Origin: Escherichia phage vB_EcoM_WL-3
Sequence record: MT968995.1
Strand: one strand, 5' to 3'
DNA length: 64,000 nt
Translations under genes and position numbers: made by a program
Part shown: positions 7,796 through 62,752 of the stretch, piece after piece
How positions within the stretch are numbered: the stretch's first letter is position 1
How the letters are laid out: each line of letters begins with the position of its first letter
Notes under the pieces: model-generated
The model's database searches: none
What the model was told of the DNA's origin: nothing
What the model saw: only the letters and a program-made list of their open reading frames with translations

Positions 7796-8208
7796 TATTT
7801 TCCAGCCTCAAATGCTCGCATGTCTTGAATATGCTTAATAGCAAATCCACGTGATTTAATAGCATCAAGAGCTCCGCTACAGAAATCTAATAAAATTCCC
7901 CAATATTGCAATGAAGTATCAACTTTTAAAACGTCCTTATCAGCTGATAGAACTGTCTTCATTTCTGATTTTTCATAACGATCCATACTAAATTCATCAC
8001 CATCTCCTCGTCCCGAGTAGTAGTCTAATTTAGCTTTAAGAGCAACTTTTTTCTGTGCTTCAATTCTAAGCATTTCCTTTTTAATACTTGAATGCTTATT
8101 AAGCCATTTACTATATAACATCACATTATTAGCTGCTTCATACTGTAATTTAGTCGAATCTATAAACACATCTTTCTTCAATTCTTCTTGAAGATCTTCT
8201 AATTTCAT
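7795..8208 (-). CDS. uvsY: UvsY recombination mediator
   Basis: 137-aa ORF; T4 size and position. Confidence 0.9.
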   Translation of the reverse strand: MKLEDLQEELKKDVFIDSTKLQYEAANNVMLYSKWLNKHSSIKKEMLRIEAQKKVALKAKLDYYSGRGDGDEFSMDRYEKSEMKTVLSADKDVLKVDTSLQYWGILLDFCSGALDAIKSRGFAIKHIQDMRAFEAGK

Positions 8209-11274: not shown

Positions 11275-11752
11275 AGAAGTTTCTATTCCTAAAATGGGTC
11301 TTAAACATTATAACATTTTAAAAGATGTTAAAGGTCCTGATGAAAATTTAAAACTTCTTATTGATTCTATTTGTCCAAATTTATCACCGGCAGAAGTTGA
11401 TTTCGTTTCTATTCATTTATTGGAATTTAATGGAAAGATTAAATCTCGTAAAGAAATAGATGGTTATACTTATGACATTAATGATGTTTATGTATGCCAA
11501 AGATTAGAATTTCAATACCAAGGAAATACATTTTATTTTAGACCGCCTGGAAAATTTGAACAATTTTTAACTGTGAGCGATATGTTATCCAAATGCTTGC
11601 TTAAGGTCAATGATGAAGTTAAAGAAATTAATTTTCTTGAGATGCCAGCATTCGTTTTAAAATGGGCAAATGATATTTTTACAACTTTAGCAATTCCTGG
11701 CCCTAATGGTCCAATAACCGGAATTGGCAATATTATTGGATTATTTGAATGA
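11219..11752 (+). CDS. 28: Baseplate hub distal protein gp28
   Basis: 177-aa ORF overlapping the 3' end of gene 27. Confidence 0.8.
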
Positions 11753-15916: not shown

Positions 15917-15969
15917 CCTCATGTTATGTCAGTAAGATTATTATAACACAATACGAGGGACTTGTAAAC
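15917..15969 (-). promoter_or_regulatory. T4-type early promoter cassette upstream of alt.-3
   Basis: On the - strand: GTTTAC (-35) then TTATAAT (-10); near-identical copy at 31688-31740 upstream of alc. Confidence 0.5.
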
Positions 15970-18026
15970 TACATCTTGAACTTTTTAGACATTCCGTTGA
16001 TGTTAACCAAAGAAGCTAAGATTTGAGAAACTTCGTTTTCCTCTTCTTTTGATTCTTCTACAAGGAATTGATTAAACCCAGCCATTGGACGAACTTCACC
16101 AGTTTCCATCAGATGATCGCCATCATATACCGATTCTTCTAATTGTTCAGAAGGAGGAACGATTGTACCTTCGATTAAATACTTGTTATAAGCAGTTTCT
16201 TTCATCATGTACGTGCTCACTTTATTAATCTTCAGCAAAATTCCACGTGGTAAAATAACTTCAGCTTCTGACGTAAATCCTGATAAATGACCCGGAACGA
16301 TAACTTTGATTCGCTCAGCTCCTTTAATTACCATACCCACGCTAGTTTCAGCATCTTCATTCGCATAAGCAGAATGACTGCCCATATGCATCAAATCTTC
16401 TGCGTCAATTGAACCTTCTCCTTCACCAGAAAATACTGCACTGGAATCATCTAGAGCCATATAGTTTTTACCATACTCACCGAAGATATTTGGTTTAAGC
16501 GATGTGGATACGAAGTTCTTAAAATAGAACATTTTATTTTCAATATTATGACGTAAAGTTTTAAAGGTAACTTCTTGGCCACGGTAAAGCGTAGTTCCTG
16601 GAGGAAGAACTGATCCTTTGGCAAAAGCAGAATCCATCGTCTCGATGTGTTTAATAGCTCGTTCCATATATTCTTCACGAGTAGAATCCGGTTTACCTAA
16701 AAGGAACGAGTTCATTTCAACATATGAATCTGCGCAATAATCTTCAATTACATCAGACTCAGCCCGAGTTAATCCTTTTGGGGGTACTTCAGTACTTGCA
16801 TATTCATACGCTTGAGAAGCAGACTCATTAATCAATTTATAAATGCCATTCATGACAAATTGAATAATAGCTACCTTTTCATCTGGCGTGGCTTTAGAAC
16901 CTTTAACTAAATCATTGACAATTTTCTTAATAACATCAAAGCTATTAGAAATATTAATGTCAGCAAGATCGCTTAAAATTTTATCAGTTTTATAATCAAA
17001 AAATTCTTTATTCTTTAAATATTCTTGAGAACCTTGATGTGTTATATCGCTCTGCAGTCTGATAGACGGATCACGTAAACGTGCATGGGCCAATGCAATA
17101 TGATTTCGGAAGCTTTTTAGTTCATAATCACTAGATTTAAAACGAGAAGCACTCCTCATACCACCGATAGCTCCTTTGCCGAAGTTTGAACCAATCTGAA
17201 TAACGCCAGAGTTCATTGGTCCTTCTGCTTTATATACCGGAACTTTAGATTCAAACTCTTGATATTTCTTAGCAGCGAAACTATCGCCCTGAAGTGAAGC
17301 ATCGACAGTAGAGTATTGAGCTTGTGCTGCTAATCGACGACTAATTTTAGTTTTCTGAATAACAGCTTGATCCGTGCGCTTATCATTTTCTAAAGCAATA
17401 GAAGCGGCAACAGCAACAGCTTTAGGAACAGCATTACCTGTTTTAACGTCTACATAAACATCACCAACCTTTGATTCAACTTTTGTGAATAACTCAGTTG
17501 AAATAGGAGGTACACCTGGAATGTCTTCTAAATTGGCATTTTTACGGTAAACCATAATATATGCATACTTTTTATCGTAATCCCAGATTTCCTTTAAAAG
17601 AACATATCGACCTGCTCCTTTAGTACGTACTAAACGGTCAGCAATAACTTGAATTTGTCGAGCTGCGCCATTTGTTTTACTCTTTAGTACGCGGAACAGG
17701 CATGCGTCAATTTTATACTGTTTCATTGTTTGAAGAGCAGTATCAAAAACCGCATTAATAACACCAATTGGATTTCCACCCAAGTTTTTAAGTTTAACTA
17801 ATGATAGTTTCTCATTGACACCTATCATTACGATATGCATCATTTTATCGCCTGGCTTAACGTTTTTATTTGTATCACCGCCAGAGGTGTATGTGCAAAA
17901 TCTAAATCCAGGAAGCACGCTTTCTTCACCGGCTTGAATAGCAAAAATTTGAGGTATTTTATGCTTAGGATTTAAGTTAACAACCGGCGCCGAAGCGCCG
18001 TCAAATAATTCTGTAATAAGTTCCAT
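15969..18026 (-). CDS. Alt-family ADP-ribosyltransferase paralog
   Basis: 685-aa ORF; N-terminus MELITELFD shared with Alt; C-terminal ART motifs YRGQ, FVSTSL, EAEVILP. Confidence 0.8.
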   Translation of the reverse strand: MELITELFDGASAPVVNLNPKHKIPQIFAIQAGEESVLPGFRFCTYTSGGDTNKNVKPGDKMMHIVMIGVNEKLSLVKLKNLGGNPIGVINAVFDTALQTMKQYKIDACLFRVLKSKTNGAARQIQVIADRLVRTKGAGRYVLLKEIWDYDKKYAYIMVYRKNANLEDIPGVPPISTELFTKVESKVGDVYVDVKTGNAVPKAVAVAASIALENDKRTDQAVIQKTKISRRLAAQAQYSTVDASLQGDSFAAKKYQEFESKVPVYKAEGPMNSGVIQIGSNFGKGAIGGMRSASRFKSSDYELKSFRNHIALAHARLRDPSIRLQSDITHQGSQEYLKNKEFFDYKTDKILSDLADINISNSFDVIKKIVNDLVKGSKATPDEKVAIIQFVMNGIYKLINESASQAYEYASTEVPPKGLTRAESDVIEDYCADSYVEMNSFLLGKPDSTREEYMERAIKHIETMDSAFAKGSVLPPGTTLYRGQEVTFKTLRHNIENKMFYFKNFVSTSLKPNIFGEYGKNYMALDDSSAVFSGEGEGSIDAEDLMHMGSHSAYANEDAETSVGMVIKGAERIKVIVPGHLSGFTSEAEVILPRGILLKINKVSTYMMKETAYNKYLIEGTIVPPSEQLEESVYDGDHLMETGEVRPMAGFNQFLVEESKEEENEVSQILASLVNINGMSKKFKM

Positions 18027-18029
18027 GAT

Positions 18030-20126
18030 TTATCCTTGAACGAACTTGTAAGGCATGTTTGTAATATCTATGCAAGACGCAATAATTCCGAGAGATGATT
18101 CTGCTTTCTGTTTAACATTTGATGAAACAAATGATGCAAAGTCAACTCTGTCTTCTATTTCAATATCACCTGTCATTGCAACTACTTCACCAGTTTCCAT
18201 TAAATGGTCTCCATCATAAATTACTGATTCGGTGAGTTCTTCTGTAGTCATAACTTCAGATTGAATGAGTTTTGTATTATTAGATGTTGTTCCGTCATTA
18301 TTAGAAGCATCAGTTATTTTATTAACTTTGACCATCAATCCGCGCGGTAGAATAACTTCAGCTTCTGTTGCTATTCCGAGACTTCCTGGATATACAACAT
18401 TAACTTTATGAGCTCCATCAATTGCCCATCCTATTTGAACTTTAACGTATTCAGGATTTTCTTTATACGCTCTTATTTCGTTTGGATTAATAGTTATTCC
18501 TTCTTCATTTTTATCAACTGTCAATTCATTACGAGCTTCTGGTTCTAAAAGACCAATACCAGCATGTGTAATTCCAAAACGTCCAAAAATGATAGGAGTT
18601 AAAGAAGTAGATACAAAATTTCTGAAATAGAACACTTTATTTTTAACTAGTGCTTCGTATATAGGAGCAGTCATACTTTGAGCACGATAAACTGTAATGC
18701 CTTCTGGTATACGGTCACCATTTTCAAAAGCTGAATCTAAGTTATTTATAGCAGATTCAATTTCTTTTTCACTCATTACATCATATCGTTCTGGATTGTA
18801 ACGACCCAAAAGAAGATTATTGATGTCAGTATATCCTGAACCACAATACTCTCTAATGCCGCGCTTTTGTGATGGAGTATATTTAGAACCATCACGGGCA
18901 ATAGTAATATCAATCATTGGACCTGCACCAATTCCAGAAAAACTATAAATCATTCGTTTGAGGAATTTAGTTTTTGCTGCGTTCCAGGAATTTTTAGTTA
19001 TTTCTTCCCAGACTTCATCTGGCTGTCCTTTACGGGTTTTATTATGTTTATCAAGCCAAGTATCTTTATATTCTTCAAAGAATTTATTAACAGCTGCTGC
19101 GTATTTCTCTAAACATTTTATTGAAGTAGTTGGTTCATTTTTAATCGCATTAAGAATTACATCTTTAATTTTTTCAGAAACTTCATTAACCTCACTTTTT
19201 GAAAAGAATTTATAGTCATAGTGAAGTTCATCTGCGGTTCCTTCGGCAATGATTTTTGCTGCCTTAGTTTTAGAAGCTAATGAATTAATTCCAAGCTTCA
19301 TTTCTTCTGCTTCGGGAATTAAAGGAGCTGTAGCAGGTTTATTGAAATTAGCTGCAGTAGATTCATACTTCTGGAATAATTCGCTTTCAAATCTAGAAGA
19401 TTCTAATGATTGACTTTGCGCAATTGCTCTACGGGAAATTTTAACTTTAACAATAACAGCTTGGTCAGAACGTTTATCATTTTCTTGTGCAATAGATGCT
19501 GCAATTGCCTCATTTTTAGTTACTTGAGCTCCAGTATCTTTATTGATATAAACATCGCCGACTTTCGATTCAACTTTAGTAAAGAGCTCGGTACTAATTT
19601 CCGGAACTCCTGGAATGTCTTCTAGTGATACATTTTTGCGATGTATAAGAATATATGCATACTTTTTATCGTAATCCCAGAGTTCCTTAAGAAGGACGTA
19701 TCTGCCACCTGAACGACTACGAATAAGTCTATCAGCAATAACTTGAATTTGTCGAGCTTGACCAGCAGTTTTAGACTTAAGAATACGGAGCATACAGGCA
19801 TCAATTTTATACTGACGCATCGTCTGCATTGCAACAGTAAAAACTGAATTGATATAATTAATTGGGCTTGGACCGAGACCTTTTAATTTAGCAATTGAAC
19901 CTTTAGCAGTTAATGTAAAAGGAACAATATGCATCATTTTATCGCCCATTTTTAAATCGCGATTAGTATCACCTCCAGATGTATAGGTACATAAACGAAA
20001 GCCTGGTTGTTCAATTGCGTCATCGACATGAACTGAAAAAATTTGTGGTATTTTCTTCTTTGGATTTAAGTTTGTAATCGGAAGAGTAGTATCTTCGTCA
20101 AATAATTCTGTAATGAGTTCCATCAT
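18030..20126 (-). CDS. alt: Alt, ADP-ribosyltransferase packaged in the head
   Basis: 698-aa ORF (alternative ATG at 20123); motifs YRAQ, FVSTSL, EAEVILP; T4 position next to gene 30. Confidence 0.85.
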   Translation of the reverse strand: MMELITELFDEDTTLPITNLNPKKKIPQIFSVHVDDAIEQPGFRLCTYTSGGDTNRDLKMGDKMMHIVPFTLTAKGSIAKLKGLGPSPINYINSVFTVAMQTMRQYKIDACMLRILKSKTAGQARQIQVIADRLIRSRSGGRYVLLKELWDYDKKYAYILIHRKNVSLEDIPGVPEISTELFTKVESKVGDVYINKDTGAQVTKNEAIAASIAQENDKRSDQAVIVKVKISRRAIAQSQSLESSRFESELFQKYESTAANFNKPATAPLIPEAEEMKLGINSLASKTKAAKIIAEGTADELHYDYKFFSKSEVNEVSEKIKDVILNAIKNEPTTSIKCLEKYAAAVNKFFEEYKDTWLDKHNKTRKGQPDEVWEEITKNSWNAAKTKFLKRMIYSFSGIGAGPMIDITIARDGSKYTPSQKRGIREYCGSGYTDINNLLLGRYNPERYDVMSEKEIESAINNLDSAFENGDRIPEGITVYRAQSMTAPIYEALVKNKVFYFRNFVSTSLTPIIFGRFGITHAGIGLLEPEARNELTVDKNEEGITINPNEIRAYKENPEYVKVQIGWAIDGAHKVNVVYPGSLGIATEAEVILPRGLMVKVNKITDASNNDGTTSNNTKLIQSEVMTTEELTESVIYDGDHLMETGEVVAMTGDIEIEDRVDFASFVSSNVKQKAESSLGIIASCIDITNMPYKFVQG

Positions 20127-27602: not shown

Positions 27603-27835
27603 AGTACGCCATACACCCTTTGTGCTTCAACTAATCCATCAAAATCCAATTTGAGATGTGTTATTTGGTCACCATCACCTGGATTCACAATTACTAATAC
27701 CGAACGAGGAGTTTCGGTAATAACACGAACCGACGTTTCAGGAAATCGTTCAGAAACCTTATTTACCAATTCTTGAGCAAATAGTTTAACTTTTTCTTGG
27801 AATTCTTTAACAGTAATTGGTTTTTCGCTTAGCAT
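27599..27835 (-). CDS. cd.2: Small protein (cd.2 position)
   Basis: 78-aa ORF. Confidence 0.5.
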   Translation of the reverse strand: MLSEKPITVKEFQEKVKLFAQELVNKVSERFPETSVRVITETPRSVLVIVNPGDGDQITHLKLDFDGLVEAQRVYGVL

Positions 27836-28356
27836 GTTGATCCTAGCTCCTTACTTTCAACATTTTTAACTAATTTGACAGAAACTAATTCAGCATCTTG
27901 GGTAATCATTACCGGACCTTCTTCATGCTCTTCAAGATATTCTAGAGCTTTCTTTTTAGCTTCTTCCTTCGTATCAGTTTGAGCATAGATATAGAACATA
28001 CAACCAGTAATACCTACTACTTTCCACTTAATTTCTTTATCAGTTTTAATTTCAAATTTACTTACAGAATCATCTTTTTGAACTTCTTCGAAAAAAGAAT
28101 ATTCTAACATATAAGCAATTGAAAATAACGGGCTAACTTTATAGGATTCACCCATTACATCAACAGCTTTATACCAACAATCATCAATTTCACGTTTAAT
28201 GCTAATAACATTTTTCGCAGGATCTATTTTTACTTTAAATGAATTTTCCCCAATAAACTGGGCAATTCGTTTATTAGCCCCGCAAGTTTCATTAAAAATA
28301 TCTTTATACCCAGTTTTAAAGCGATAAACCTTATCTTCTTCAAACCATTCGCTCAT
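27829..28356 (-). CDS. cd.3: Protein (cd.3 position)
   Basis: 175-aa ORF; early promoter with stem-loop upstream (28377-28416). Confidence 0.55.
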   Translation of the reverse strand: MSEWFEEDKVYRFKTGYKDIFNETCGANKRIAQFIGENSFKVKIDPAKNVISIKREIDDCWYKAVDVMGESYKVSPLFSIAYMLEYSFFEEVQKDDSVSKFEIKTDKEIKWKVVGITGCMFYIYAQTDTKEEAKKKALEYLEEHEEGPVMITQDAELVSVKLVKNVESKELGSTC

Positions 28357-28896: not shown

Positions 28897-30311
<1,415 letters not shown>

Positions 30312-31743: not shown

Positions 31744-33331
<1,588 letters not shown>

Positions 33332-33358
33332 AATAAAATGGGCCTTGCGGCCCACTCC

Positions 33359-34537
33359 TTAAAAGTATTTTTTAAAACTCATCATAACTTTATCATCAAC
33401 ATCATTATCAATCTGTGCAACAAGATAAGATGACAGTTCTACTTCTTGTGGCGCTGATTGAACATTATCAGAATTAAGATATTCACGAATCCAAGGATAT
33501 GGATGTTTAACCGGAGCATCGGTAATTGGGCATGGAAGACCACACTGTTTCATACGAGATACAGTTAAGTAATCAATAAAGCTCCACATGCTATTTGTAT
33601 TTAATCCAGGAACATCGCCATCTTTAAATAAATGAACTGCCCAATCTTTTTCTTGGCGGTTAACTTCCATGAAAATATCAACTGCTTCTTGTTCACACTC
33701 TTGAGCAATTTTAACCCATTGATCGCCATCAGTACCAGATTGAAGTTGACGAATAATATATTGTGTACCTTTAAGATGAAGCTGCTCATCACGTGCAATA
33801 AATTTCATAATCTTCGCATTACCTTCCATGATTTCCATGTTCTTATGGAAGTTGAAAGTACATGCAAAGGATACATAAAAACGAATAGCTTCCAGAGCAT
33901 TGATAACGTGCAGACAGAGATAAAGCGACTTCATTAGCTCACGCTTCCAATATGTCTCATGCTCAATAGCATCTTCAATAACGTCTTCGTCTGCATTAAT
34001 TTCTTTTTGGTATTCGATATCAGCTTTAGCGTTTTCCCAATAACGAGTTTTAATCAGAACATCATCATAATAACGTCCAATGGATTCAGCACGTTTCATA
34101 ATAGCTTCATCTAATACAATTTCATCAAATACCTTCGATGGATCAGTATAAAGATTTCGCATGATATGAGTATATGAACGACTGTGAATAGTTTCACTAA
34201 AAGTCCATGTAGCAACCCATGTATCAAGGCTTGGGTCTGAAATTAATGACATAAGTACAGCAGATGGCGCGCGACCCTGAATGCTATCTAAAAGTGATTG
34301 ATACTTCAAGTTGTTAGTAAAAATATTTTGCTGATACTGAGGAAGCTTATTAAACTGTGCAGCATCCATCATCAAGTTTACTTCTTCAGGACGCCAGAAA
34401 AATGATAATTGCTTTTCGGTTAAATCTTCAAAAACTTTATGACGTTGAATATCATAACGCGCAATACCAAGACCTGAACCAAAAAACATAGGTTCTTTTA
34501 AAACGTCAACTGGATTTGTATTAAAAACTGTGCTCAT
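33359..34537 (-). CDS. nrdB: Ribonucleotide reductase small subunit NrdB (uninterrupted, no intron)
   Basis: Continuous 392-aa ORF containing the diiron-ligand EExxH-type segments. Confidence 0.9.
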   Translation of the reverse strand: MSTVFNTNPVDVLKEPMFFGSGLGIARYDIQRHKVFEDLTEKQLSFFWRPEEVNLMMDAAQFNKLPQYQQNIFTNNLKYQSLLDSIQGRAPSAVLMSLISDPSLDTWVATWTFSETIHSRSYTHIMRNLYTDPSKVFDEIVLDEAIMKRAESIGRYYDDVLIKTRYWENAKADIEYQKEINADEDVIEDAIEHETYWKRELMKSLYLCLHVINALEAIRFYVSFACTFNFHKNMEIMEGNAKIMKFIARDEQLHLKGTQYIIRQLQSGTDGDQWVKIAQECEQEAVDIFMEVNRQEKDWAVHLFKDGDVPGLNTNSMWSFIDYLTVSRMKQCGLPCPITDAPVKHPYPWIREYLNSDNVQSAPQEVELSSYLVAQIDNDVDDKVMMSFKKYF

Positions 34538-34588
34538 AAATTTTCCGCTTAGTTAATAGTTGGTGACTCGTCCGTGAGTCAAATTATA

Positions 34589-37410: not shown

Positions 37411-37722
37411 TTACACCGCCATTTTTCCTTTAATAGGAGGGTGTGATTCGTAACCTTTAAGAACGAAATCTTTAGGCCTGAGTTTAAGAACATATTCCAA
37501 TTGTTCTTTAGTAGAAAGATAGCGGAATTTATAAGGCAATCCGCCTATTACCAGTTCACAAAGCTCTTTAGGTTCACGACGTAAAATTTCTTTACATTGT
37601 TCCACGTGGTTCATATAGATATGAGTATTACCGCCAGAAAATATCAAATCTCCAGGAATAAGATTACACATCTTAGCTACAATATGAACCAACGCAGCAT
37701 ATGATGCAATATTAAATGGAAG
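37411..37722 (-). CDS. td: Thymidylate synthase exon 2 (codons 184-286 plus stop)
   Basis: Exon begins CTTCCATTT directly after intron-terminal ATG; encodes the TS C-terminal part. Confidence 0.9.
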   Translation of the reverse strand, partial: LPFNIASYAALVHIVAKMCNLIPGDLIFSGGNTHIYMNHVEQCKEILRREPKELCELVIGGLPYKFRYLSTKEQLEYVLKLRPKDFVLKGYESHPPIKGKMAV

Positions 37723-38738
37723 CATTATGTTCAGATAAGGTCGTTAATCTTATCCCGGAATTATATCCAGCTGCATGTCACCATACAGATCAGACTATAT
37801 CTCCATCTTGATGAAGCAAGATGTCTATCGTTTCGAGTCACTTGACCCTACTCCCCAAAGGGATAGTCGTTAGGCATTTATGTAGAACCAATTCCATTTA
37901 TCAGATTTTACACGATAAGTAACTAATCCAGACGAAATTTTAAAATGTCTAGCTGCATCTGCTGCGCATTCAAAAATAATCCCGTCGCATGAAATCTTTT
38001 TAATATTACTAGGCTTTTTGCCTTTCATCTTTTCTGATATTTTAGATTTAGTTTTGTCCGAATGCTTATGATTAAAGAATGAATTATTTTCACCTGAACG
38101 ATTTCTGCATTTACTACAAGTATAAGCAGAAGTTTGTATACGAACACCGCACTTACAAAATTTGTGTTTTTCTGGATTCCATCGTCCGTTTTTACTTCCG
38201 GGTTTACCGTAAAGAGCTTTCCGAGCATCAAGGCCAAGCTTAAGCATCTTAGCTTTAACAGTTTCAGAGCGTTTCTTAATAATTTCTTCTTTTAATGGAT
38301 GTACAGAATATGTATCACCAAACGTTGCATCAGCAATATTATATCCATTAATTTTAGAATTAAGCTCTTTAATCCAAAAATTTTCTCGTTCAATAATCAA
38401 ATCTTTCTCATATGGAATTTCTTCCAAAATAGAGCATTCAAATACATTACCGTGTTTGTTAAAAGACCTTTGAAGTTTTATAGAAGAATGGCATCCTTTT
38501 TCTAAGTCTTTAAAATGCCTCTTCCATCTCTTTTCAAAATCTTTAGCACTTCCTACATATACTTTATTGTTTAAAGTATTTTTAATCTGATAAATTCCAC
38601 TTTTCATAAATACCTCTTTAAATATAGAAGTATTTATTAAAGGGTAGTCCTACAATTTAGCACGGGATTGTCTACTAGAGAGGTTCCCCGTTTAGATAGA
38701 TTACAAGTATAAGTCACCTTATACTCAGGCCTCAATTA
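37723..38738 (-). mobile_element. Group I self-splicing intron in td (1016 nt) carrying the I-TevI ORF
   Basis: Exon 1 ends in T (…TTGGGT); intron starts TAATTGAGGCCTGAGTATAAGG and ends ATG (terminal G); length 1016 nt; excision joins a 286-codon TS frame. Confidence 0.9.
37870..38607 (-). CDS. I-TevI: I-TevI GIY-YIG homing endonuclease (intron-encoded)
   Basis: 245-aa ORF inside the intron; N-terminal GIYQI...VYVGSA GIY-YIG motif; C-terminal zinc finger CKCG...CSKC. Confidence 0.9.
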   Translation of the reverse strand: MKSGIYQIKNTLNNKVYVGSAKDFEKRWKRHFKDLEKGCHSSIKLQRSFNKHGNVFECSILEEIPYEKDLIIERENFWIKELNSKINGYNIADATFGDTYSVHPLKEEIIKKRSETVKAKMLKLGLDARKALYGKPGSKNGRWNPEKHKFCKCGVRIQTSAYTCSKCRNRSGENNSFFNHKHSDKTKSKISEKMKGKKPSNIKKISCDGIIFECAADAARHFKISSGLVTYRVKSDKWNWFYINA

Positions 38739-39287
38739 ACCCAAGAACACGTCAACACTTCTTTGATACCACTGTAAATCCAAATATCCATTACGCACAT
38801 TAAACTGATAGAACATATGACAAGGTGGTAATGCCATATATTTAAGTTCAGCTGGATTCCACGCAGAAACAATTTGACGCCTATCATTCGGTAGTTTTTT
38901 AATACGATCAATAACTTCTACAATTTGGTCTACACCGCCAAAATCACGCCATTGTTTTCCGTAAATTGGACCAAGTTCACCACTATGATATCCTAAATCT
39001 TTTGCTTGGTTTTCGTAATTTTCATCCCAGACTGTTTTGCCTTGAATTAATGAATCGTGTTGAATTAATCGTAAATCATTGACATTTGTGCTTCCTGATA
39101 AAAACCAAAGGAGCTCAGCAATGCAAGCTTTCCAGGCGAGCTTCTTAGTCGTTACTGCAGGAAAACCTTTAGTTAAATCCCAGCGTAATTTAGTACCGAA
39201 CAAAGCAATTGTTCCTGTGCCTGTTCGGTCATCGGTTTCATAGCCATTTTCAAAAATGTCTTTAATTAAATCTTGGTATTGTTTCAT
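38739..39287 (-). CDS. td: Thymidylate synthase exon 1 (codons 1-183)
   Basis: N-terminal TS sequence; the ORF stop TAA is the first three intron nucleotides. Confidence 0.9.
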
Positions 39288-39332: not shown

Positions 39333-39692
39333 TCAATACGGTTTAGCATCAAATTTTCTTTCGATTTCAGGAGTGAAATATAATTCTTTACCACGTTTGG
39401 AAAAACGACCAATAATATGATAATTATTCTCATCAAACGTGATATTGCCAATATCCATAGCTTTCAACCAAATATCGATATTTCTATCCAGCTTTATATC
39501 AAAATTCCAATACGGAGAACTATTACCGAAAATACTGCAAGCGGATTCAGTGAAACAACTGCTATAAATTTTGTCTTTGGGAACTACTAATTGATAGACG
39601 CCTTTAATAAACTGAGGACCCTGCCATTTTGGTTGTTTCGCGTCTTTTTCTAATAGAATAGGGTAATAATTAAAGTTCATATTTTCCGCCAC
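39333..39692 (-). CDS. Hypothetical protein inserted between frd and td
   Basis: 119-aa ORF filling a roughly 410-bp spacer; no recognisable domain. Confidence 0.5.
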   Translation of the reverse strand: MAENMNFNYYPILLEKDAKQPKWQGPQFIKGVYQLVVPKDKIYSSCFTESACSIFGNSSPYWNFDIKLDRNIDIWLKAMDIGNITFDENNYHIIGRFSKRGKELYFTPEIERKFDAKPY

Positions 39693-40285: not shown

Positions 40286-40528
40286 TCAAAACCCCCTTTC
40301 AATAAACCATTCAGCGGCTTTATTAGCATCAAAGAATAATTCTTCATATGTCTTTTCTTTGTTTTCAAAAACTGTCACACAAACACGTTGACATTCTCCA
40401 CAGTATTCTTCTGACATACTCAAAGCGTCAGAAAACATTTCATTAAATTCATTTAAATCAGGATTATGCAATGCGTTAAAAATTGCATAATCGAATTCAT
40501 CATTCATAAATTCAAATACAAAAATCAT
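40286..40528 (-). CDS. frd.1: Small acidic protein (frd.1 position)
   Basis: 80-aa ORF. Confidence 0.5.
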   Translation of the reverse strand: MIFVFEFMNDEFDYAIFNALHNPDLNEFNEMFSDALSMSEEYCGECQRVCVTVFENKEKTYEELFFDANKAAEWFIERGF

Positions 40529-40872
40529 ATTATCTCATAATATAAAGGATCAGGAACATATCCACTGGCTTTAATCATTTTAATTAACGTTAACATTCCT
40601 TTATTAACTGCTCGTGAAATTTCATCAAAAACTTCATCACTAAAAAGTTCTAACACGCCCTTCTGAACTTTTAATTTACACCCAACAATTTCGTCATCGC
40701 CTATAGTAAATTCGTTTCCGCCAATTCCACCGAAAAACTTAATTGCACCAGTCAACTGTCTTCCACGAGAATATGGGTCGTGTGATAAAGTAATATGAGT
40801 CACCCCAGGTACAGTTTTAAATTGGCAACGGATGTTTACTTGGGCAATTCCAGTTACGTGAATGTCAGACAT
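40525..40872 (-). CDS. frd.2: Small protein (frd.2 position)
   Basis: 115-aa ORF. Confidence 0.5.
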   Translation of the reverse strand: MSDIHVTGIAQVNIRCQFKTVPGVTHITLSHDPYSRGRQLTGAIKFFGGIGGNEFTIGDDEIVGCKLKVQKGVLELFSDEVFDEISRAVNKGMLTLIKMIKASGYVPDPLYYEII

Positions 40873-42889: not shown

Positions 42890-42960
42890 TTTTATTTCCT
42901 TTTTAATTTAATTAACAGTTGGTGCTATGACGATGTATGACCTCATAGCTGGTCAGTGAG
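42890..42960 (-). promoter_or_regulatory. Gene 32 translational operator (A/U-rich leader plus upstream pseudoknot-forming element)
   Basis: On the - strand: TGACCAGCTATGAGGTCATACATCGTCATAGCAC then TTAATTAAATTAAAAAGGAAATAAAA-ATG; late promoter TATAAATA at 42973-42980. Confidence 0.6.
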
Positions 42961-42988
42961 ATAATTATAATCTATTTATAATAAGCAA

Positions 42989-45254: not shown

Positions 45255-48200
45255 ATGGCCGAGATTAAAAGAAAGTTCAGAGCAGAAGACGGTCTGGACG
45301 CAGGTGGCGATAAAATAATCAACGTAGCTTTAGCTGATCGTACCGTAGGAACTGACGGTGTTAACGTTGATTACTTAATTCAAGAAAACACAGTTCAACA
45401 ATATGATCCAACTCGTGGATATTTAAAAGATTTTGTAATCATTTATAATAATCGTTTTTGGGCAGCAACGGATAATATTCCAAAACCTGCTGGAAGTTTT
45501 AATAGAATTCGTTGGAAAGCATTACGTACTGATGCCGTATATACAACCGTATCATCTGGACCATATCAATTAAAATCCGGAGAAGCAATTTCAGTAGATA
45601 CATCAGTTGGTAATGACATTGAGTTTAATTTACCACCTTCTCCGCTTGATGGAGAAACCGTAATAATTCAAGATATTGGTGGAAAACCTGGTATAAATCA
45701 GGTTAAAATAAATTCTTCAAATCAGAGTATTGTTAATTTTAGAGGTGAACAAGTACGTTCAGTTCTAATGACTCATCCAAAGTCACAGATGATATTCATT
45801 TTTAATAATCGTTTGTGGCAAATGTATGCTGCTGATTATAGCAGAGAAGCTGCGATTGTTACTCCATCAACTGCATATCAAGCACAATCTAATGATTTTA
45901 TCGTGCGTAGATTTACTTCCGCTGCGCCGATTAATATTAAACTTCCGAGATTTGCTAATCATGGCGATATTATTAATTCGTGCGTAGATTTACTTCCGCT
46001 GCGCCGATTAATATTAAACTTCCGAGATTTGCTAATCATGGCGATATTATTAATTTCGTTGATTTAGATAAATTAAATCCACTTTATCATACAATTGTCA
46101 CAACATATGATGAAACAACTTCAGTACAAGAAGTTGGAACTCATTCTATTGAAGGCCGTACATCAATTGACGGTTTCTTGATGTTTGATGATAATGAAAA
46201 ATTATGGAGACTGTTTGACGGGGATAGTAAAGCACGTTTACGCATTATAACAACTAATTCTAATATTCGTCCAAATGAAGAAGTTATGGTATTTGGCGCG
46301 AATAACGGAACAGCCCAAACAATTGAACTTCAACTTCCAACCGATATTTCCATTGGTGATACTGTTAAAATTTCCATGAATTACATGAGAAAAGGACAAA
46401 CAGTTAAAATCAAAGCTGCCGGTGAAGATAAAATTGCTTCTTCAGTTCAATTGCTGCAATTCCCAAAACGCTCAGAATATCCACCACCTGAAGCTGAATG
46501 GGTGACTGTCCAAGAATTAGTTTTCAATGGTGAAACTAATTATGTTCCGGTTTTACAACTTGCTTATATAGAAGATTCTGACGGAAAATACTGGGTTGTA
46601 CAACAAAACGTTCCAACGGTTGAAAGAGTCGATTCTTTAAATAATTCTACTAGAGCAAGATTAGGCGTAATAGCTTTAGCTACACAAGCTCAAGCTAACG
46701 TCGATTTAGAAAATTCTCCGCAAAAAGAATTAGCAATTACACCAGAAACATTAGCTAACCGTACTGCTACAGAAACTCGTAGAGGTATCGCAAGAATAGC
46801 AACTACTGCTCAAGTGAATCAGAACACCACATTCTCTTTTGCTGATGACCTTATCATCACTCCTAAAAAGCTGAATGAAAGAACTGCTACAGAAACTCGT
46901 AGAGGTGTAGCTGAAATTGCTACGCAGCAGGAAACTAATACAGGTACTGATGATACTACAATCATCACTCCTAAAAAGCTTCAAGCTCGACAAGGTTCTG
47001 AATCATTATCTGGTATTGTAACCTTTGTATCTACTGCGGGAGCTACTCCAGCTTCTAGTCGCGAATTAAATGGTACAAATGTTTATAATAAAAACACTAA
47101 TAATTTAGTTGTTTCGCCTAAAGCTTTGGATCAGTATAAAGCTACTCCAACACAACAAGGTGCAGTAATTTTAGCAGTTGAAAGTGAAGTAATTGCTGGA
47201 CAAAGCCAAGAAGGATGGGCAAATGCGGTTGTAACGCCAGAAACGTTACATAAAAAGACATCAACTGATGGAAGAATTGGTTTAATTGAGATTGCTACGC
47301 AAAGTGAAGTTAATACAGGAACTGATTATACTCGCGCAGTCACTCCTAAAACTTTAAATGACCGTAAAGCAACTGAAAGTTTAACTGGTATAGCTGAAAT
47401 TGCTACGCAAGTTGAATTCGACGCAGGCGTCGACGATACTCGTATCTCTACACCATTAAAAATTAAAACCAGATTTAATAGTACTGATCGTACTTCTGTT
47501 GTTGCTCTGTCTGGATTAGTTGAATCAGGAACTCTCTGGGACCATTATACCCTTAATATTCTTGAAGCAAATGAGACACAACGTGGTACACTTCGTGTAG
47601 CTACACAAGTTGAAGCTGCTGCAGGAACATTGGATAATGTTCTAATAACTCCTAAAAAGCTTTTAGGTACTAAATCTACTGAAGCGCAGGAAGGTGTTAT
47701 TAAAGTTGCAACTCGGTCTGAAACTGTAGCTGGAACGTCAGCAAATACTGCTGTATCTCCAAAAAATTTAAAATGGATTGTGCAGAGTGAACCTACTTGG
47801 GCAGCTACTACTGCGATAAGAGGTTTTGTTAAAACCTCATCCGGTTCAATTACATTCGTTGGTAATGATACAGCTGGTTCTACGCAGGACTTAGAACTAT
47901 ATGAGAAAAATAACTATGCAGTATCACCATATGAATTAAACCGCGTATTAGCAAATTATTTGCCGTTAAAAGCAAAAGCTGTAGATAGTAATTTATTAGA
48001 TGGTTTAGATTCACTCCAGTTCATTCGTAGGGATATTGCGCAGACGGTTAATGGTTCACTAACCTTAACACAACAAACGAATCTGAGTGCCCCTCTTGTA
48101 TCATCTAGTACTGCTACGTTTGGTGGATCAGTTTCGGCAAATAGTACATTAACTATTTCTAATACTGGAACGGCAACTCGTCTTATTTTTGAAAAAGGGC

Positions 48201-49204
48201 CTCAAACTGGGACGAACCCAGCTCAAACGATGACAGTCAGAGTGTGGGGAAATCAATTCAGCAGTGAATCGGACACAACACGTTCTACTGTATTTGAAGT
48301 TAGTGATGAAACGTCTAGTCACTTTTATTCTCAGCGCAATAAAGCTGGTAATATAACATTTAATATCAATGGTACAGTAACACCGATAAATGTGAATGCT
48401 TCAGGAACATTGAATGCGAATGGCGTTGCAACATTCGGTAGTTCAGTTACTGCTAATGGCGAATTTATCAGTAAATCGTCGAATGCTTTTAGAGCAATAA
48501 ATGGTGATTATGGATTCTTTATTCGTAATGATGGTGCTAACACCTATTTTATGCTTACTGCATCTGGTGATCAGACCGGTGGATTTAATGGATTACGTCC
48601 TTTATCTATTAATAATGCATCTGGTCAAGTAACGATTGGTGAAAGCTTAATCATTGCCAAAGGTGCTACTATAAGTTCAGGTGGTTTAACTGTTAACTCG
48701 AGAATTCGTTCTCAGGGTACTAAAACCTCTGATTTATATACCCGTGCGCCAACATCTGATACTGTAGGATTCTGGTCAATCGATATTAATGATTCAGCCA
48801 CTTATAACCAGTTCCCGGGTTATTTTAAAATGGTTGAAAAAACTAATGAAGTGACTGGACTTCCATACTTAGAACGTGGCGAAGAAGTTAAATCTCCCGG
48901 TACATTGACTCAGTTTGGTAACACACTTGATTCGCTTTACCAAGATTGGATTACTTATCCAACTACCCCAGAAGCGCGCACCACTCGCTGGACACGCACA
49001 TGGCAGAAAACCAAAAACTCTTGGTCAAGTTTTGTTCAGGTATTTGATGGGGGTAACCCTCCTCAACCTTCGGATATAGGAGCGATCCCATCTGATAACG
49101 GAATAATAGGTAATCTTACTATTCGTGATTTCTTGCGAATTGGTAATGTTCGCATTATTCCTGACCCAGTGAATAAAACTGTTAAATTTGAGTGGATTGA
49201 ATAA
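45255..49204 (+). pseudogene. 34: Gene 34 long tail fibre proximal subunit, interrupted by a frameshifting 77-bp tandem duplication
   Basis: Two ORFs (45255-46067 and 45980-49204) share RFTSAAPINIKLPRFANHGDIIN; deleting one 77-bp copy gives a single 3873-nt ORF. Confidence 0.85.
45899..46055 (+). repeat. Perfect tandem direct repeat, 2 copies of 77 bp
   Basis: Sequence at 45901-45977 is identical to 45978-46054; period 77 is not a multiple of 3. Confidence 0.95.
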
Positions 49205-51049: not shown

Positions 51050-53998
51050 ATGGCTACTTTAAAACAAATACAATTTAAAAGAAGCAAAACTGCAGGTCAA
51101 CGTCCTGCTGCTTCAGTATTAGCCGAAGGTGAATTGGCTATAAACTTAAAAGATAAAACAATTTTCACAAAAGATGACTCAGGTAGTGTTATAGAATTAG
51201 GTTTAAAATATGGAGGAACTATAAATGGGTCTTTAGAGGTTACAGAAAATATAACTGGAACTTTAATTGGAAATTCTAGCACAGCTACTAAATTGCAAAC
51301 ACCTAGGAAAATTAATGGTATATCTTTTGATGGGTCAAAGGACATTACCTTAACTCCATCTGACATAAATGTCAATAGCACAACATTTATAAAAAATAAT
51401 GGCGAATTACCTACTGATGCTAATTTAGATACGTATGGGCCCATTGAAGAATATCTTGGTGTTTGGTCGAAATCTACTTCAACAAATGCGCAACCAGCAA
51501 ATAAATTCCCAGAAGAAAATGCCGTAGGTGTACTAGAAGTGTTTGTGGCCGGCCAATTTGCTGGCACTCAGCGTTATACTGTAAGATCTGGTAACGTCTA
51601 TATTCGTTCCTTATCTGCTAAATGGAATGGCGTCGATGGTCCATGGGGTGTGTGGCGTAATGTTCAAGCGTCAACTCGTCCACTTTCACAAACGATTGAC
51701 CTTGATAGCTTGGGAGAATTAGAACATTGTGGCTTATGGCGAAACAGTTCAAGCGCAATCGCATCATTTGATCGCCATTATCCAGAAGAAGGATCAGCCG
51801 CACAAGGATTTTTAGAAATATTTGAAGGTGGTTTATACACGAGAACTCAGCGTTATACTACCCGCATGGGTATGGTTTATACTCGTTGTCTCGCTGCTGC
51901 ATGGGATGCTAGTGCACCTAAGTGGGAGGAATGGAAGCAGGTTGGTCATGGCACACCAGCGACTTTCTATGATGGAGATCTGAATGATTTTAAAACTCCC
52001 GGGTTATATAATATTTTAGGCACTGATGCCGTTATTAACTGTCCTACAGGTGAAGGTTTGCCGACTGTTATTGTTGGTTTGCTGGAAGTTAAACAGCGTG
52101 CTTCTGGCGGTGCTATTTTCCAACGTTTCACTACCGCAGGAACGGGTGCAACTACTCGCGATCGTATTTTTGAGCGTGCATATACTGGTGGTGCGTGGGG
52201 TGCATGGAACGAAGTATATACATCTTATTCTCTGCCAATTACTTTGGGTATGGGTGGTATTAAAGCTCAATTAGCGGAGTTAGATTGGCAAACCTTTGAT
52301 TTTGTCCCTGGTAGTATGTTTAGTGTTCCTTTGAACAAAATAAAGAATATGCCAGCAAATATGGATTGGGGCACGATTGATGGAAACCTGGTTATGTTTT
52401 CTGTCGGTCCTAGCGAACATACCGGAACGGGTCGAACTGTTCAAGTGTGGCGCGGTACTGTATCTCAGGCGAACTATCGTTATTTCGTTGTTCGTATCGC
52501 TGGTAATCCAGGAAGTAGGACTAATACTTGTCGTCGTGTTGTTCTTGAAGACGGATCACATACTTGGACTGCTCAACAAAACTTTAGGGGATTGCTGAAT
52601 ATCACTGCTGCTGTTAATCTTGGTGCTAATCAGAAAATTTCACTTGCTCCAGGAGCATATATTCAAGCCCCTGCTAGCGGTTCTGGTTCTAATACTTACG
52701 CAAATCAGAATACTACCATTGCGCCATTATATCAGGCTATTGACGATTCAAATAAAAACCAGTTTGCGCCAATTGTTAAACAGAAAAACACTGTAACAAA
52801 TATTACTATGGCTTCTGGTATGGATATTGCTAGTTCAGAATATCGTATCGTTGCTCAGGGTGATTTATCCGCTACTGGAACTACAGCCACTGAATTAGCT
52901 ACATGGCGTTTCTTGCCGTCTGGCCGATTCATGTCACAAAGCCGAGTTTATGCTGGCGCAGCATTCTTGAACACTGATGGTAACATTGCTGGTTCAATCT
53001 GGAAGAAATACAACGATGCAACCAATTTAGATGCTGCCTTGAATACTCGCCTAGGTAAAGGCGGTGATACGATGACAGGTCGGTTAACAATCAATGCACC
53101 TAATGATTCTATTGTATTATCAACGACTGCTAGTAATTCTTTGCATATTCGTGGTGACATAGACGGGACTGGTAACTGGTATATTGGTAAGGGTGGTGCT
53201 GATAATTCGCTAGCATTTTATAGCTATGCTTCTCAGGCGGCAGTACATATCACAAACAGTGGTGAGATTGCGTTAAAACCGCAAAATACCGTAATGGTTA
53301 ACGTTAACCGTGACCGTGTACACATTAACGGTTCTGGATGGATTGCTAGACAACCGGGTGATTGGGGCAACCAATGGCGAGTAGAAGCTCCATTATTCGT
53401 TGATCATGGTTATGTTTCACAGGATTGTTATTATCCTATTCTTAAAGCAAGAAGCGTTATAACCAATCAAGGATATAGCACCGCTGTTGACTTTGGTATG
53501 CGTCGTATTCCATCACAGTGGGGGCAAGCAATCATTCGTGTCGGATCCACGGAGGCTTCTCCTGATGCTGGACACCCACAAGCTGTGTTTGAATTCCATC
53601 ATGATGGATTCTTTTATACACCAGGAAATGGTAGCTTTAGCGATGTGTATATTCGTTCTGACTCCCGTCTCAAGATTAATAAAGAAGAATTAGAATATGG
53701 AGCGGTCGAAAAAGTTTGCCGACTGAAAGTTTATATTTACGATAAAGTTAAGTCTATTAAAGACCGTAGTGTTATTAAACGTGAAGTTGGTATTATTGCT
53801 CAGGACCTTGAAAAGGAATTACCGGAAGCTGTATCTAAAGTTGAAGTTGATGGATCTGATGTTCTGACAATTTCTAACTCTGCTGTGAATGCTCTTTTAA
53901 TTAAGGCTATTCAGGAAATGAGTGAAGAAATTAAAGAATTGAAAACGCCTTTCTTCACTAAAATTGCTCGCAAAATTAGTAATTATTTTAAATTCTAA
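51050..53998 (+). CDS. 37: gp37 long tail fibre distal subunit with C-terminal intramolecular-chaperone-like domain
   Basis: 982-aa ORF; last ~113 aa (from SDSRLK, nt 53657) resemble the autocleaving C-terminal chaperone domain of phage fibres. Confidence 0.85.
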
Positions 53999-54004
53999 CA
54001 ACAA

Positions 54005-54020
54005 GGGGCTTTGCCCCTTT
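54005..54020 (+). terminator. Hairpin after gene 37
   Basis: ggggc-ttt-gcccc hairpin and TTT immediately before the gene 38 RBS. Confidence 0.4.
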
Positions 54021-54030
54021 GGAGAAAATT

Positions 54031-54831
54031 ATGGCAGTAGTTGGTGTTCCCGGTTGGATTGGAAGTTCATCTGTAAATGAAACAGGACAACGATGGATGA
54101 GTCAAGCGGCTGGTCAATTAAGATTGGGTGTTCCTTGCTGGATGAGCCAATTCGCCGGACGCTCAAGAGAGATTATTCATACCGTAACAGCAAACCATAA
54201 CTTTAATGGTCAATGGTTCCGCGACCGTTGCTTTGAAGCTGGCGGTGCACCCATTGTATTCAATATTGTTGGTGATATCGTTTCTTATTCTAAAGATGTG
54301 CCACTTTTCTTTATGTATGGGGATACGCCTAATGAATATGTTGTTCTTAATATTCATGGCGGTGTTCATATGTGGGGTCGTGGTGGTAATGGTGGATACA
54401 CTCACTCAGGAGGCGACGGTAACGGTACACAAGGCGGTCATGTTATTCAAAATGATATCGGTGGACGGCTTCGTATTTGGAACTACGGTGTTATAGCTGC
54501 TGGTGGTGGTGGTGGTGGCGGTATTGCATATCGTCCACACTCAGGGGCAAACTGGCAAGATATCGGTGGCGGCGGCGGTCGACCTTTCGGTGGGGCTGGC
54601 GGTGGCGGTTATTCCGGTGGTGCTGCTTCGTATGAAGGTCCGGGTGGTGGTTATGACTATGGTAACGCACACTCCGGCGCTGGTGGTAATGCTGGTGCTG
54701 CTGGTCAGAATGCATGGTCTGACGGCGGTAAAGTTCTTAAAGTTGGTGTTGGTGGTGCGTCTGGTCATGCAGTGTTTGGGTCTTCTCCAACTTGGGGTGT
54801 TGTTGGAACAATTTACGGACCAAGAGTATAA
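54031..54831 (+). CDS. 38: gp38 receptor-recognising adhesin, T2/T6 type with glycine-rich motifs
   Basis: 266 aa from ATG 54031 (GGAG RBS); poly-Gly blocks GGGGGGG separated by variable segments; the ORF-track start at 54019 is a TTG. Confidence 0.8.
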
Positions 54832-54861
54832 TTTGAATAAATATCCTTAAAAGGAGGGTCT

Positions 54862-61556: not shown

Positions 61557-61642
61557 AATAACCTCATCACAAAAGTAAATGTTAAACAAATTAATGGAAT
61601 ACTAATTAACCAAATAAAACACCACCACCACAATGAACTCAT
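61553..61642 (-). CDS. Small hydrophobic peptide
   Basis: 29-aa ORF found by hand (MSSLWWWCFIWLISIPLICLTFTFVMRLL); ATGA overlap with the upstream ORF. Confidence 0.3.
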   Translation of the reverse strand: MSSLWWWCFIWLISIPLICLTFTFVMRLL

Positions 61643-61911
61643 AGTTCAATCTCAGCGATTTTCATTTCATTACTATTAATAGCCGCTTTAAGACTATCTG
61701 AAAGAATTACATTCCAGTGGTCATTCATATGACCATTAACTAAGCGTGTAATTTCTTCGGGAGTTGAAAAATAAGGCGTATCAGACTCCCAGTGCGATAG
61801 TCCCAAGCGAGTATAAATCATACCTTCATCATCGCTAGAATATTCAACTGACACAAACTCATCAGTTATTTTATGTTTAGCGTAATAAAATTTAAATTTC
61901 ATTTTACTCAA
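61639..61911 (-). CDS. Small protein
   Basis: 90-aa ORF. Confidence 0.5.
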   Translation of the reverse strand: MSKMKFKFYYAKHKITDEFVSVEYSSDDEGMIYTRLGLSHWESDTPYFSTPEEITRLVNGHMNDHWNVILSDSLKAAINSNEMKIAEIEL

Positions 61912-62114
61912 TAATCCGCTAAAAGATCGACAATTGCATCACGAAGACACTTATTCGCAATACGTTTAAGAGCAATTTCAGTTTCTGGAGCATTTTGAAT
62001 AATCATTGAATTCAATTCAGCCTCAGCAAACTGAAGTTCTTTAACTAATTCAGCTTTATATTTTCCTTGCCCTTTCTTAGCTTTTGCTCGTTTTAATTCA
62101 GCTGTAGTAAACAT
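61908..62114 (-). CDS. Small Lys-rich protein
   Basis: 68 aa from the internal ATG at 62114; an early promoter cassette (62140-62190) lies inside the longer ORF-track version. Confidence 0.45.
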   Translation of the reverse strand: MFTTAELKRAKAKKGQGKYKAELVKELQFAEAELNSMIIQNAPETEIALKRIANKCLRDAIVDLLADY

Positions 62115-62194
62115 TTTATTCTCCAAATCCGTATCAGTTGATAGTTGTATAGTACCACAGTCCTTGTGGTTTGTAAACCGTTTTGTGAAATTTT

Positions 62195-62752
62195 TTAAAT
62201 GGAAAGATACCATCCGTTGTAGTTGCTTTTTCTTACAACCTTACGAAGGTCTTCTCTATCACCGATGAACTTCGGAGTGTACTGGATGACACCTGGATGA
62301 ATTTCTTTAGTGTTGAATATAATTATACAGTCAGCGACTTGATGATTCAGAATGGGCCCTAGATTTATTCCAGAACCGTATGGATACTCCCCGCTGCATC
62401 CGGTTGTTACCGAAATCCAACGTGAGTCAGTTTGATGTGTTTTGACTTCTACACGAAGCCCACAGTATTTTGGATGCGCCAATACATCCCATGCGTATGT
62501 ATACGGGTCATTAACATCCTCTTGGCCTTTGTTAACATACCCGCTCAGCCAATCTGCTACAAAAAACTCTGCATACACAGCGATACGGCATCTTTCGATA
62601 ACTTCTGCTTTATCCTGATTTGGATTTTGTTTTAGAGAGTATCTTGCTGTATCAGCAATTTTGACCTTCATTTCACTAGTCAAGTCACTGTTCGATAGGG
62701 TAAATGTCGGAATCTGAAATAGTCTCTGTAAACCTGGATTCGTTTTCTGCAT
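62195..62752 (-). CDS. denB: Endonuclease IV
   Basis: 185-aa ORF; T4 size and position adjacent to rIIB. Confidence 0.8.
   Translation of the reverse strand: MQKTNPGLQRLFQIPTFTLSNSDLTSEMKVKIADTARYSLKQNPNQDKAEVIERCRIAVYAEFFVADWLSGYVNKGQEDVNDPYTYAWDVLAHPKYCGLRVEVKTHQTDSRWISVTTGCSGEYPYGSGINLGPILNHQVADCIIIFNTKEIHPGVIQYTPKFIGDREDLRKVVRKSNYNGWYLSI

Follow-up and report, generated by a model that had tools for sequence, protein, structure and literature searches.

The thymidylate synthase gene td of Escherichia phage vB_EcoM_WL-3 lies within the 64,000-nucleotide stretch of its genome analyzed here (the window; record MT968995.1). It is encoded on the minus strand and is interrupted by a 1016-nt group I intron at 37723-38738. 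Exon 1 (38739-39287, minus strand; 549 nt, codons 1-183) was placed from the open reading frame (ORF) list, the sequence itself, the splice reconstruction, and the P1 pairs, and exon 2 (37411-37722, minus strand; 312 nt including the stop codon) from the ORF list and the splice reconstruction. Exon 1 ends in CTTGGGT, with its last base, a U, at window position 38739. On the minus strand, the first letters of the intron are TAATTGAGGCCTGAG from position 38738, and its 3′ end reads ...AACATAATG, with the final G at 37723. This extent, UAAUUGAGGCCUGAG to the terminal G, is supported by an ungapped alignment with the T4 intron and by homologous introns, and the complement of window position 37723 is indeed G, within ...AACAUAAUG. 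An earlier note on this DNA, made from the sequence alone, had given the same coordinates, length, and boundary sequences, with exon 1 ending in U and the intron in G, and all of these are read in the sequence as claimed. The intron sequence quoted there has the right letters, but td is on the minus strand and so the quotation corresponds to the reverse complement of the window. Removal of the intron restores the host reading frame: 38739-39287 joined to 37411-37722 (549 + 312 = 861 nt) is in frame and encodes a thymidylate synthase of 286 aa, in which VDVFLG from exon 1 is followed directly by LPFNIASY from exon 2. The spliced protein differs from T4 Td by 8 amino acids, OZ209023 serving as the T4 td reference for this splice comparison. 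The td gene span in NC_000866 implies an intron of 1017 nt.

The td secondary structure was written out as P1, P2, P3, P4, P5, P6, P6a, P7, P7.1, P7.2, P8, P9, P9.1, and P9.2, a model of 74 pairs in which P3 and P7 form a pseudoknot. In the window, each of these 74 pairs is a standard one. In P1, exon UUGGGU pairs with intron GCCUGA of the internal guide sequence over six pairs, with a U.G pair at the splice site formed by the last base of exon 1 and intron G9. The P1 changes found in relatives are one-sided and preserve pairing. An unconstrained minimum free energy fold of the ORF-deleted RNA recovers P2-P6a, P7.1, P7.2, P8, P9, P9.1, and P9.2. When eight td introns were aligned without their ORFs, pairing was found in 99.5% of cells, compared with 30-43% in a slid control in which the 3′ partners were moved by 1-3 columns, and five pairs show compensatory (both-side) changes across the eight introns. 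The conserved core of a group I intron, P3-P8 with the P3/P7 pseudoknot, is present.

The two halves of the ribozyme differ in how far they depart from T4. The 5′ half (38650-38738, minus strand; intron positions 1-89) holds the P1 internal guide sequence, P2, and the 5′ strands of P3, P4-P5, P6, and P6a, and is identical to T4. The 3′ half (37723-37885, minus strand; intron positions 854-1016), placed by its match to the Rfam model RF00028 and by pair counts, overlaps the last I-TevI codons and holds the 3′ strands of P6a and P6, then P7, P7.1, P7.2, the 3′ strand of P3, P8-P9.2, and the terminal G. Eight substitutions relative to T4 lie outside the ORF. Two of these, 918 A>U and 933 U>A (intron numbering), fall on both sides of one pair in the P8 hairpin (37804-37823, minus strand) and constitute a compensatory swap from A-U to U-A, accompanied by two loop changes at 926 and 928. 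A third, 954 C>U, converts a C-G pair of P9 to U.G, and a fourth, 986 G>A, converts a G.U pair of P9.2 to A-U. The substitutions at 94 and 949, like those at 926 and 928, fall in loops or joiners. As pairing is kept by the substitutions in the window, the ribozyme is under structural constraint.

A covariance-model search, on which the earlier note would have let the group I assignment stand or fall, gave a divided result. Rfam run on the whole window produced 0 matches at the gathering threshold and, with the td match also lost, 0 matches at a permissive E≤0.01. When RF00028 was run against a 1.3-kb region alone with permissive filters, the match spanned 37771-38001 on the minus strand with 36.3 bits (E=2.5e-7), short of the 50 bits required for gathering. 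In this match the 3′ core (J6/7, P7, the 3′ strand of P3, P8, and P9) is aligned correctly, while the 5′ half is forced onto the ORF. As a control, the ORF-less td introns of 215Ecol030PP (262 nt) and 101112UKE3-1 (320 nt) score 65.5 and 66.9 bits, whereas td introns with a whole or partial ORF (FN, AV109, STP4-a, and Ursula) fall below Rfam gathering in 4/4 cases. The window ribozyme is identical to the 215Ecol030PP mini-intron with its flanks at 275 of 286 aligned positions (96%). The miss is explained by the ~760 nt of loop sequence that the ORF places in P6a and not by a defective core. It is a limitation of the model, a false negative, and is no evidence against group I membership. Since Rfam is insensitive to ORF-bearing introns, other introns of this kind were judged by collinearity instead.

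The single long ORF of the intron (37870-38607, minus strand; intron positions 132-869) lies in the P6a loop and encodes a 245-aa I-TevI. It had been described as intact, and the domain searches agree. The N-terminal catalytic domain is recognized as GIY-YIG (PF01541, E=5.2e-18) and is followed by a linker with a zinc finger (PF22635, I-TevI_ZnF, 1.4e-20), by NUMOD3 (PF07460, 4.5e-5), and by the C-terminal DNA-binding domain (PF20987, I-TevI_DNA-bd, 5.7e-32), so that four Pfam domains are present; in PHROGs, the protein matches the homing-endonuclease family phrog_314. Nine residues differ from T4 (C100Y, T102V, P126L, G128A, S134G, T147K, I185K, V210I, and D213E), six in the linker and three in the DNA-binding region. 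The zinc-finger cysteines C151, C153, C164, and C167 are unchanged. Over the whole ORF, the nucleotide differences from T4 number 20 in codons changed synonymously and 12 in codons with a replacement, and residues 1-92, which are catalytic, show seven synonymous changes and no replacement. The linker is the part of I-TevI that sets the cleavage distance.

Upstream of the ORF that encodes I-TevI, the start of the P6a loop (38608-38649, minus strand; intron positions 90-131) departs from T4 at a single base (position 94, G to A). The corresponding T4 segment contains an operator, a late promoter, and a hairpin that sequesters the ribosome-binding site (RBS; PMC2988022), and its identity to T4 suggests that 38608-38649 would play the same three roles. 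The motif of I-TevI is 5′-CNNNG-3′, with the cut made 23/25 nt upstream of the insertion site (PMC2988022). Exon alignment places this motif at 38761-38765 (minus strand), -27 to -23 from the insertion site, where the window has CAAAG and T4 has CAACG. At the cleavage site, exon 1 encodes Arg-Ser with other codons than T4 does, AGA AGT in place of CGC TCA, so that five of six bases differ. The CNNNG motif survives this recoding because its C is the first base of a Gln codon and its G the second base of the Arg codon. The td intron has both an ORF in a peripheral loop and, upstream of its insertion site, the motif at which that ORF's product would be expected to cut.

Beyond td, the window was compared with T4 by collinear BLAST read with the T4 annotation. 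It is collinear with T4 105812-168903 at ~95% identity, in keeping with the earlier view that the phage is not T4 itself. Only one of the six T4 homing-endonuclease loci in this region is present in the window (I-TevI), and the alignment gaps relative to T4 are exactly the other five: segD, segE, the nrdB intron with I-TevIII, nrdB.1 together with mobE, and segG. As had been claimed, nrdB (33359-34537, minus strand) is one uninterrupted ORF of 392 codons with neither intron nor I-TevIII, a statement that rests on the continuous 392-aa ORF and on full-length matches in relatives. An in-frame junction obtained by brute-force search for a guessed T4 nrdB splice point was spurious and was discarded. 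The claim that seg genes are missing at two junctions also holds by T4 collinearity. Between gene 23, which ends at 699, and gene 24, which starts at 783, lie 83 nt (700-782) without segD; between inh, which starts at 5501 on the minus strand, and uvsW, which starts at 5552, lie 50 nt (5502-5551) without segE, and the spacings of 84 nt and 51 nt cited for these junctions match. Two further absences go beyond those first claimed, namely nrdB.1 and mobE at the nrdA/nrdB junction (34538-34588; 51 nt) and segG at the gene 32/gene 59 junction (42890-42988; 99 nt).

Searches of the window for further endonucleases returned to td each time. Neither tblastn of T4 segD, segE, segG, mobE, I-TevIII, and nrdB.1 nor tblastn of two endonucleases of phage RPN226 found anything in the window other than the I-TevI locus, and a scan of the window for the GIY-x-YIG motif found only I-TevI. 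No second GIY-YIG or HNH homing endonuclease was found in the window, and no free-standing seg or mob endonuclease occurs there, at the T4 positions or elsewhere. The assertion that the window contains no self-splicing locus besides td is founded on its collinearity with T4 and on intact ORFs. A weak GIY-YIG match was obtained for the DenA orthologues of related contigs, but DenA is endonuclease II and not a seg-type gene. Gene 34 is frameshifted by a 77-nt stretch repeated exactly in tandem (45892-46045), which resembles an artefact of assembly; this break was considered as a possible intron and, being a duplication, was ruled out as one.

The nrdA-nrdB junction without intron and without mobE is ~98% identical in many Tequatroviruses. 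T4 has been called the oddity in this respect, no other T-even-like phage coming near its 15 endonucleases (Edgell, Gibb and Belfort, PMC2988022), and it is established that an uneven endonuclease complement is the normal condition among T-even relatives, with T4 as the outlier. The mosaic complement to which the earlier note drew attention does separate the phage from T4, but it does not mark an unusual phage. Within nrdB, the 5′ part is 84.5% identical to T4 and the 3′ part 96%. T4 carries a mobE-linked 5′ nrdB allele distinct from the endonuclease-less allele (PMC2790892), and the low identity of the 5′ part would fit this distinction.

Taken together, the phage is read here as a Tequatrovirus that carries a classical mobile td group I intron with I-TevI and from which the five other T4 insertions are absent, a reading to which a probability of about 0.93 is assigned. 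The least improbable of the alternatives, itself given little weight, is that sequence specific to the window conceals another homing endonuclease or a second intron, in which case td could no longer be called the only mobile element and the only self-splicing locus. Five insertions have no T4 counterpart (27829-28356, 29991-30311, 39333-39692, 40286-40872, and 61639-62213), as does a second alt paralogue at 18030-20126. For most of the insertion ORFs, Pfam names no family and the PHROG assigned is one of unknown function, and the insensitivity of Rfam scans to ORF-bearing introns would favor such an element escaping notice. However, no endonuclease domain was found in the window-specific ORFs with Pfam or PHROGs, and the insertion ORFs gave 0 matches to the GIY-YIG, HNH, NUMOD, and LAGLIDADG families; no T4 or RPN226 endonuclease matches them beyond noise by tblastn at E≤10. 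All five insertions are intergenic and interrupt no conserved gene, and relatives carry the same ORFs as ordinary small genes.

The reading of td as the single mobile intron of the window is further informed by its relatives. A search among ~50,000 phage records found full-length homologous introns in 196, a number far beyond chance. The best full-length relative is that of JE01 at 96.9%, with no isolate record higher, and T4, T6, RB3, and many others stand at 96.0-96.2%. The T4-type intron is near-clonal, with 176 records having a best match of at least 99% to the T4 copy, a count that may include short partial matches. Forty records at ≥99% to the window intron were considered as closer relatives and were rejected, the matches being only 33-42-nt core fragments common with other introns. 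Exact-pattern scans of IMG/VR for the P8 variant of the window, with and without a free loop, found none; the variant was located in the isolate RPN226 by BLAST and in metagenome contigs by exact-protein look-up. The window intron belongs to a different lineage from the canonical T4-type copy, one that public data already contain.

At least 24 public contigs from metagenomes or the SRA encode the exact I-TevI protein of the window. Six of them (L012-L017) were compared over 14-20 kb around the intron and are ~95% identical to the window there. The intron of L012, a 168-kb metagenome contig, shows 0/1016 differences from the window, and those of the five contigs L013-L017 show 4/1016 (99.6% identical). 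Near-identical introns in divergent backbones require recent horizontal movement. In the comparison with L012, the last difference in exon 1 lies at 38826 and the first in exon 2 at 37690, leaving a zero-difference tract at 37691-38825 (minus strand) of 1135 nt, made up of 87 nt of exon 1, the intron, and 32 nt of exon 2. The flanks in L012 are 3.0-3.4% divergent, from which ~35 differences would be expected over 1135 nt where 0 are observed. The tract includes the I-TevI cleavage site and is read as the footprint of co-conversion during homing, although general recombination is possible in principle. In L013-L017, codons of the exon flank differ right up to -10. A segG-sized ORF is present in L013-L015, and between nrdA and nrdB L014 carries a NUMOD1-containing ORF and L017 a D12 methyltransferase, so that endonuclease content among these contigs is combinatorial. 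At the level of populations, these comparisons point to horizontal spread of the intron with co-conversion of exon sequence. The pattern among intron relatives is reportedly the one that Sandegren and Sjoberg summed up in 2004 in the title 'recent transfer of old introns'.

This footprint bears directly on a second alternative, in which the intron is a decaying, immobile relic inherited vertically, with I-TevI drifting to a pseudogene. I-TevIII in T4 has drifted toward such a state, ORF-less and partly deleted td introns exist in relatives, and the 3.9% distance of the intron from the T4 copy is close to the ~5% of the genome, which taken alone resembles vertical co-divergence. Against these points, I-TevI is full length with all of its domains, its catalytic domain has accumulated seven synonymous changes and no replacement, and the changes in the ribozyme are compensatory or preserve pairing. 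Identical or 99.6% identical introns in ~5% divergent backbones, together with a sharply bounded zero-difference tract, speak for movement instead, and a relic is considered improbable, slightly more so than a hidden element. Still less probable is that the mosaic arose in assembly, from a chimeric contig or from collapsed regions, so that the missing endonucleases, or even the intron, would not belong to a single real genome, a possibility that the gene 34 duplication might encourage. Each of the five empty junctions is short, clean, and collinear, the nrdA-nrdB junction recurs at ~98% in many independent isolates, the intron and its exon flanks are exactly reproduced in the independent contig L012, and the same combination of intron present, no mobE, 392-aa nrdB, and no segG is found in isolate JE01 as well as in L012.

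For the classical mobile intron, then, a mechanism can be proposed in which the fold, ORF, frame, motif, absences, and population footprint are taken from sequence, and splicing, cleavage, and regulation from T4 biochemistry. The intron RNA is predicted to fold into the td-type group I core from P1 to P9.2, with its P3/P7 pseudoknot. Splicing would proceed by guanosine-initiated transesterification in two steps, the first at the P1 U.G pair and the second after the terminal G, and self-splicing would yield the message for the in-frame 286-aa enzyme. In a mixed infection, I-TevI would bind an intron-less td around the insertion site and cut it 23/25 nt upstream at CNNNG, and when the break is repaired with the intron-carrying genome as template, the intron would be copied along with short exon flanks. 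By analogy with T4 (PMC2988022), I-TevI would be expressed late, from the late promoter of the intron itself and upon release of the RBS hairpin, and would repress its own synthesis at the operator.

The td intron is an archetype of the mobile introns of phages, and that T-even phages vary in endonuclease content is already known; the additional findings on lineage, the P8 swap, recombination within the intron, and the co-conversion tract only confirm an established paradigm. For annotation, td should be described as a split gene whose intron encodes I-TevI and is missed by default Rfam scans. The endonuclease-poor state of the window confirms T4 as an unusual member of its group. The locus also provides a clean natural example of homing, with an identical intron and 87/32 nt of exon flank in genomes that are ~3% divergent, and it illustrates compensatory evolution and modular recombination within one group I intron, which could feed a population survey of td lineages.

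Among known systems, the closest comparison is with the T4 td intron, which we take to be of subgroup IA2. The two introns share the same gene, insertion site, and 1016-nt length without indels, the same ORF position in P6a, an identical 5′ ribozyme half, and the same 245-aa endonuclease of four domains. They are separated by 40 substitutions in an ungapped alignment (96.1% identity), among them the P8 swap with its two loop changes and those behind the nine I-TevI replacements, and by the recoding of the cleavage-site codons. The introns of JE01, of the TuIa/AV109 type, of Gelderlandvirus STP4-a, and of Citrobacter phage Ursula agree with that of the window in insertion site, architecture, and fold. 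JE01 shares many of the variable sites with the window, and STP4-a and Ursula share the U-A state of the P8 pair; overall, the window intron is ~90% identical to the TuIa type, and STP4-a and Ursula stand at ~80%. The RPN226 intron is of the TuIa/AV109 type over positions 1-883, but from 884 to 1016 it matches the window at every base, the P8 swap included, and this hybrid indicates that lineages recombine inside the intron. The guide sequence of the RPN226 intron differs from that of the window. There is an even chance that the window intron represents a second, separately circulating clonal td/I-TevI lineage that homes actively among Tequatrovirus backbones and has exchanged its 3′ module with the TuIa-type lineage. 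If the linker substitutions of I-TevI altered its cleavage distance or target preference, two I-TevI 'strains' could compete for the td site. At the other end of the range stand the natural ORF-less td mini introns of 215Ecol030PP (262 nt), 101112UKE3-1 (320 nt), and FN (446 nt), which have the same ribozyme as the window but have lost all or most of I-TevI, whereas the window intron keeps its endonuclease intact.

Across nrdB (33359-34537, minus strand), identity to T4 falls from 96% in the 3' part to 84.5% in the 5' part, and the step lies at window positions 33861-33864, the exact site of the T4 nrdB intron. Since the 5' region of intron-less nrdB is nicked by MobE (PMC2790892), this boundary fits a history in which the T4 5' nrdB allele moves together with mobE. 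The 5' allele of the window is ~98% identical to that found in many Tequatroviruses without the endonuclease. Next to nrdB, the junction with nrdA spans only 51 nt in the window, whereas two contigs that carry the window's I-TevI allele hold ORFs there: L017 has a D12-class DNA methyltransferase ORF (7060-7851), and L014 has an ORF of 243 aa (11111-11842) that matches NUMOD1 faintly. Because these contigs hold different ORFs at a position where the window has so little sequence, the nrdA/nrdB junction is a hotspot for insertions.

A second GIY-YIG-family nuclease in the window may be denA (endonuclease II; 32921-33355, minus strand), a possibility raised by the weak Pfam GIY-YIG match of its orthologues in related contigs. 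The denA product is an enzyme that degrades host DNA, not a seg-type homing endonuclease. Phage RPN226 (L011) carries both a free-standing GIY-YIG ORF and an HNH endonuclease, with the loci at 4748-5479 (minus strand) and 7014-7724 (plus strand). The GIY-YIG ORF shares 46% identity with I-TevI along its whole length and lies just past the downstream end of td, in the opposite orientation, and the HNH endonuclease splits nrdA of this phage into two ORFs.

Parts of the td intron also match sequence outside td. Intron positions 43-84 (window 38655-38696), 42 nt of the core in the P3-P6 region, match a second, unannotated locus in several T-even genomes (JB75, TH58, F2) at 100%, and positions 937-969 match nrdD regions of Vibrio phages; both presumably reflect core sequence common to other phage group I introns. 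Upstream of td, a 119-aa ORF of unknown function (phrog_1928; 39333-39692, minus strand), for which a Pfam search returned no match, separates frd from td; in T4 the two genes directly overlap each other. At this position an ORF is annotated in JE01, 215Ecol030PP, STP4-a, and Ursula, where it is labelled phrog 1928, but is missing from T4, AV109, and FN. Further small ORFs missing from T4 (27829-28356, 29991-30311, 40286-40872, and 61639-62213, all minus strand) are assigned to phrog_3710, 2364, 3183, 3566/DUF7247, 2390, and 4535, all of unknown function, and none of them resembles a nuclease.

The proximal long-tail-fibre gene 34 (45255-49204, plus strand) contains a 77-nt tandem duplication with two exact copies (45892-46045), and the resulting frameshift leaves two overlapping ORFs (45255-46067 and 45980-49204), whereas the gene is intact in related contigs (~1281-1290 aa). 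The 77-nt repeat length suggests that the assembler left a k-mer overlap untrimmed, although the duplication may be a genuine tail-fibre mutation in the phage. Distal gene 37 and gene 38 (51204-54837) gave no match in nucleotide comparison with T4, and the ORF in the gene 38 position encodes 270 aa, compared with 183 aa in T4; this may point to a T2-type adhesin arrangement. The window also carries two full-length genes in tandem for Alt-like ADP-ribosyltransferases, a second alt paralogue at 18030-20126 (698 aa) and alt at 15969-18026 (685 aa), both on the minus strand. T4, in contrast, has a single alt together with alt.-1 and alt.-2, short remnants that the T4 annotation attributes to a partial duplication of old date.
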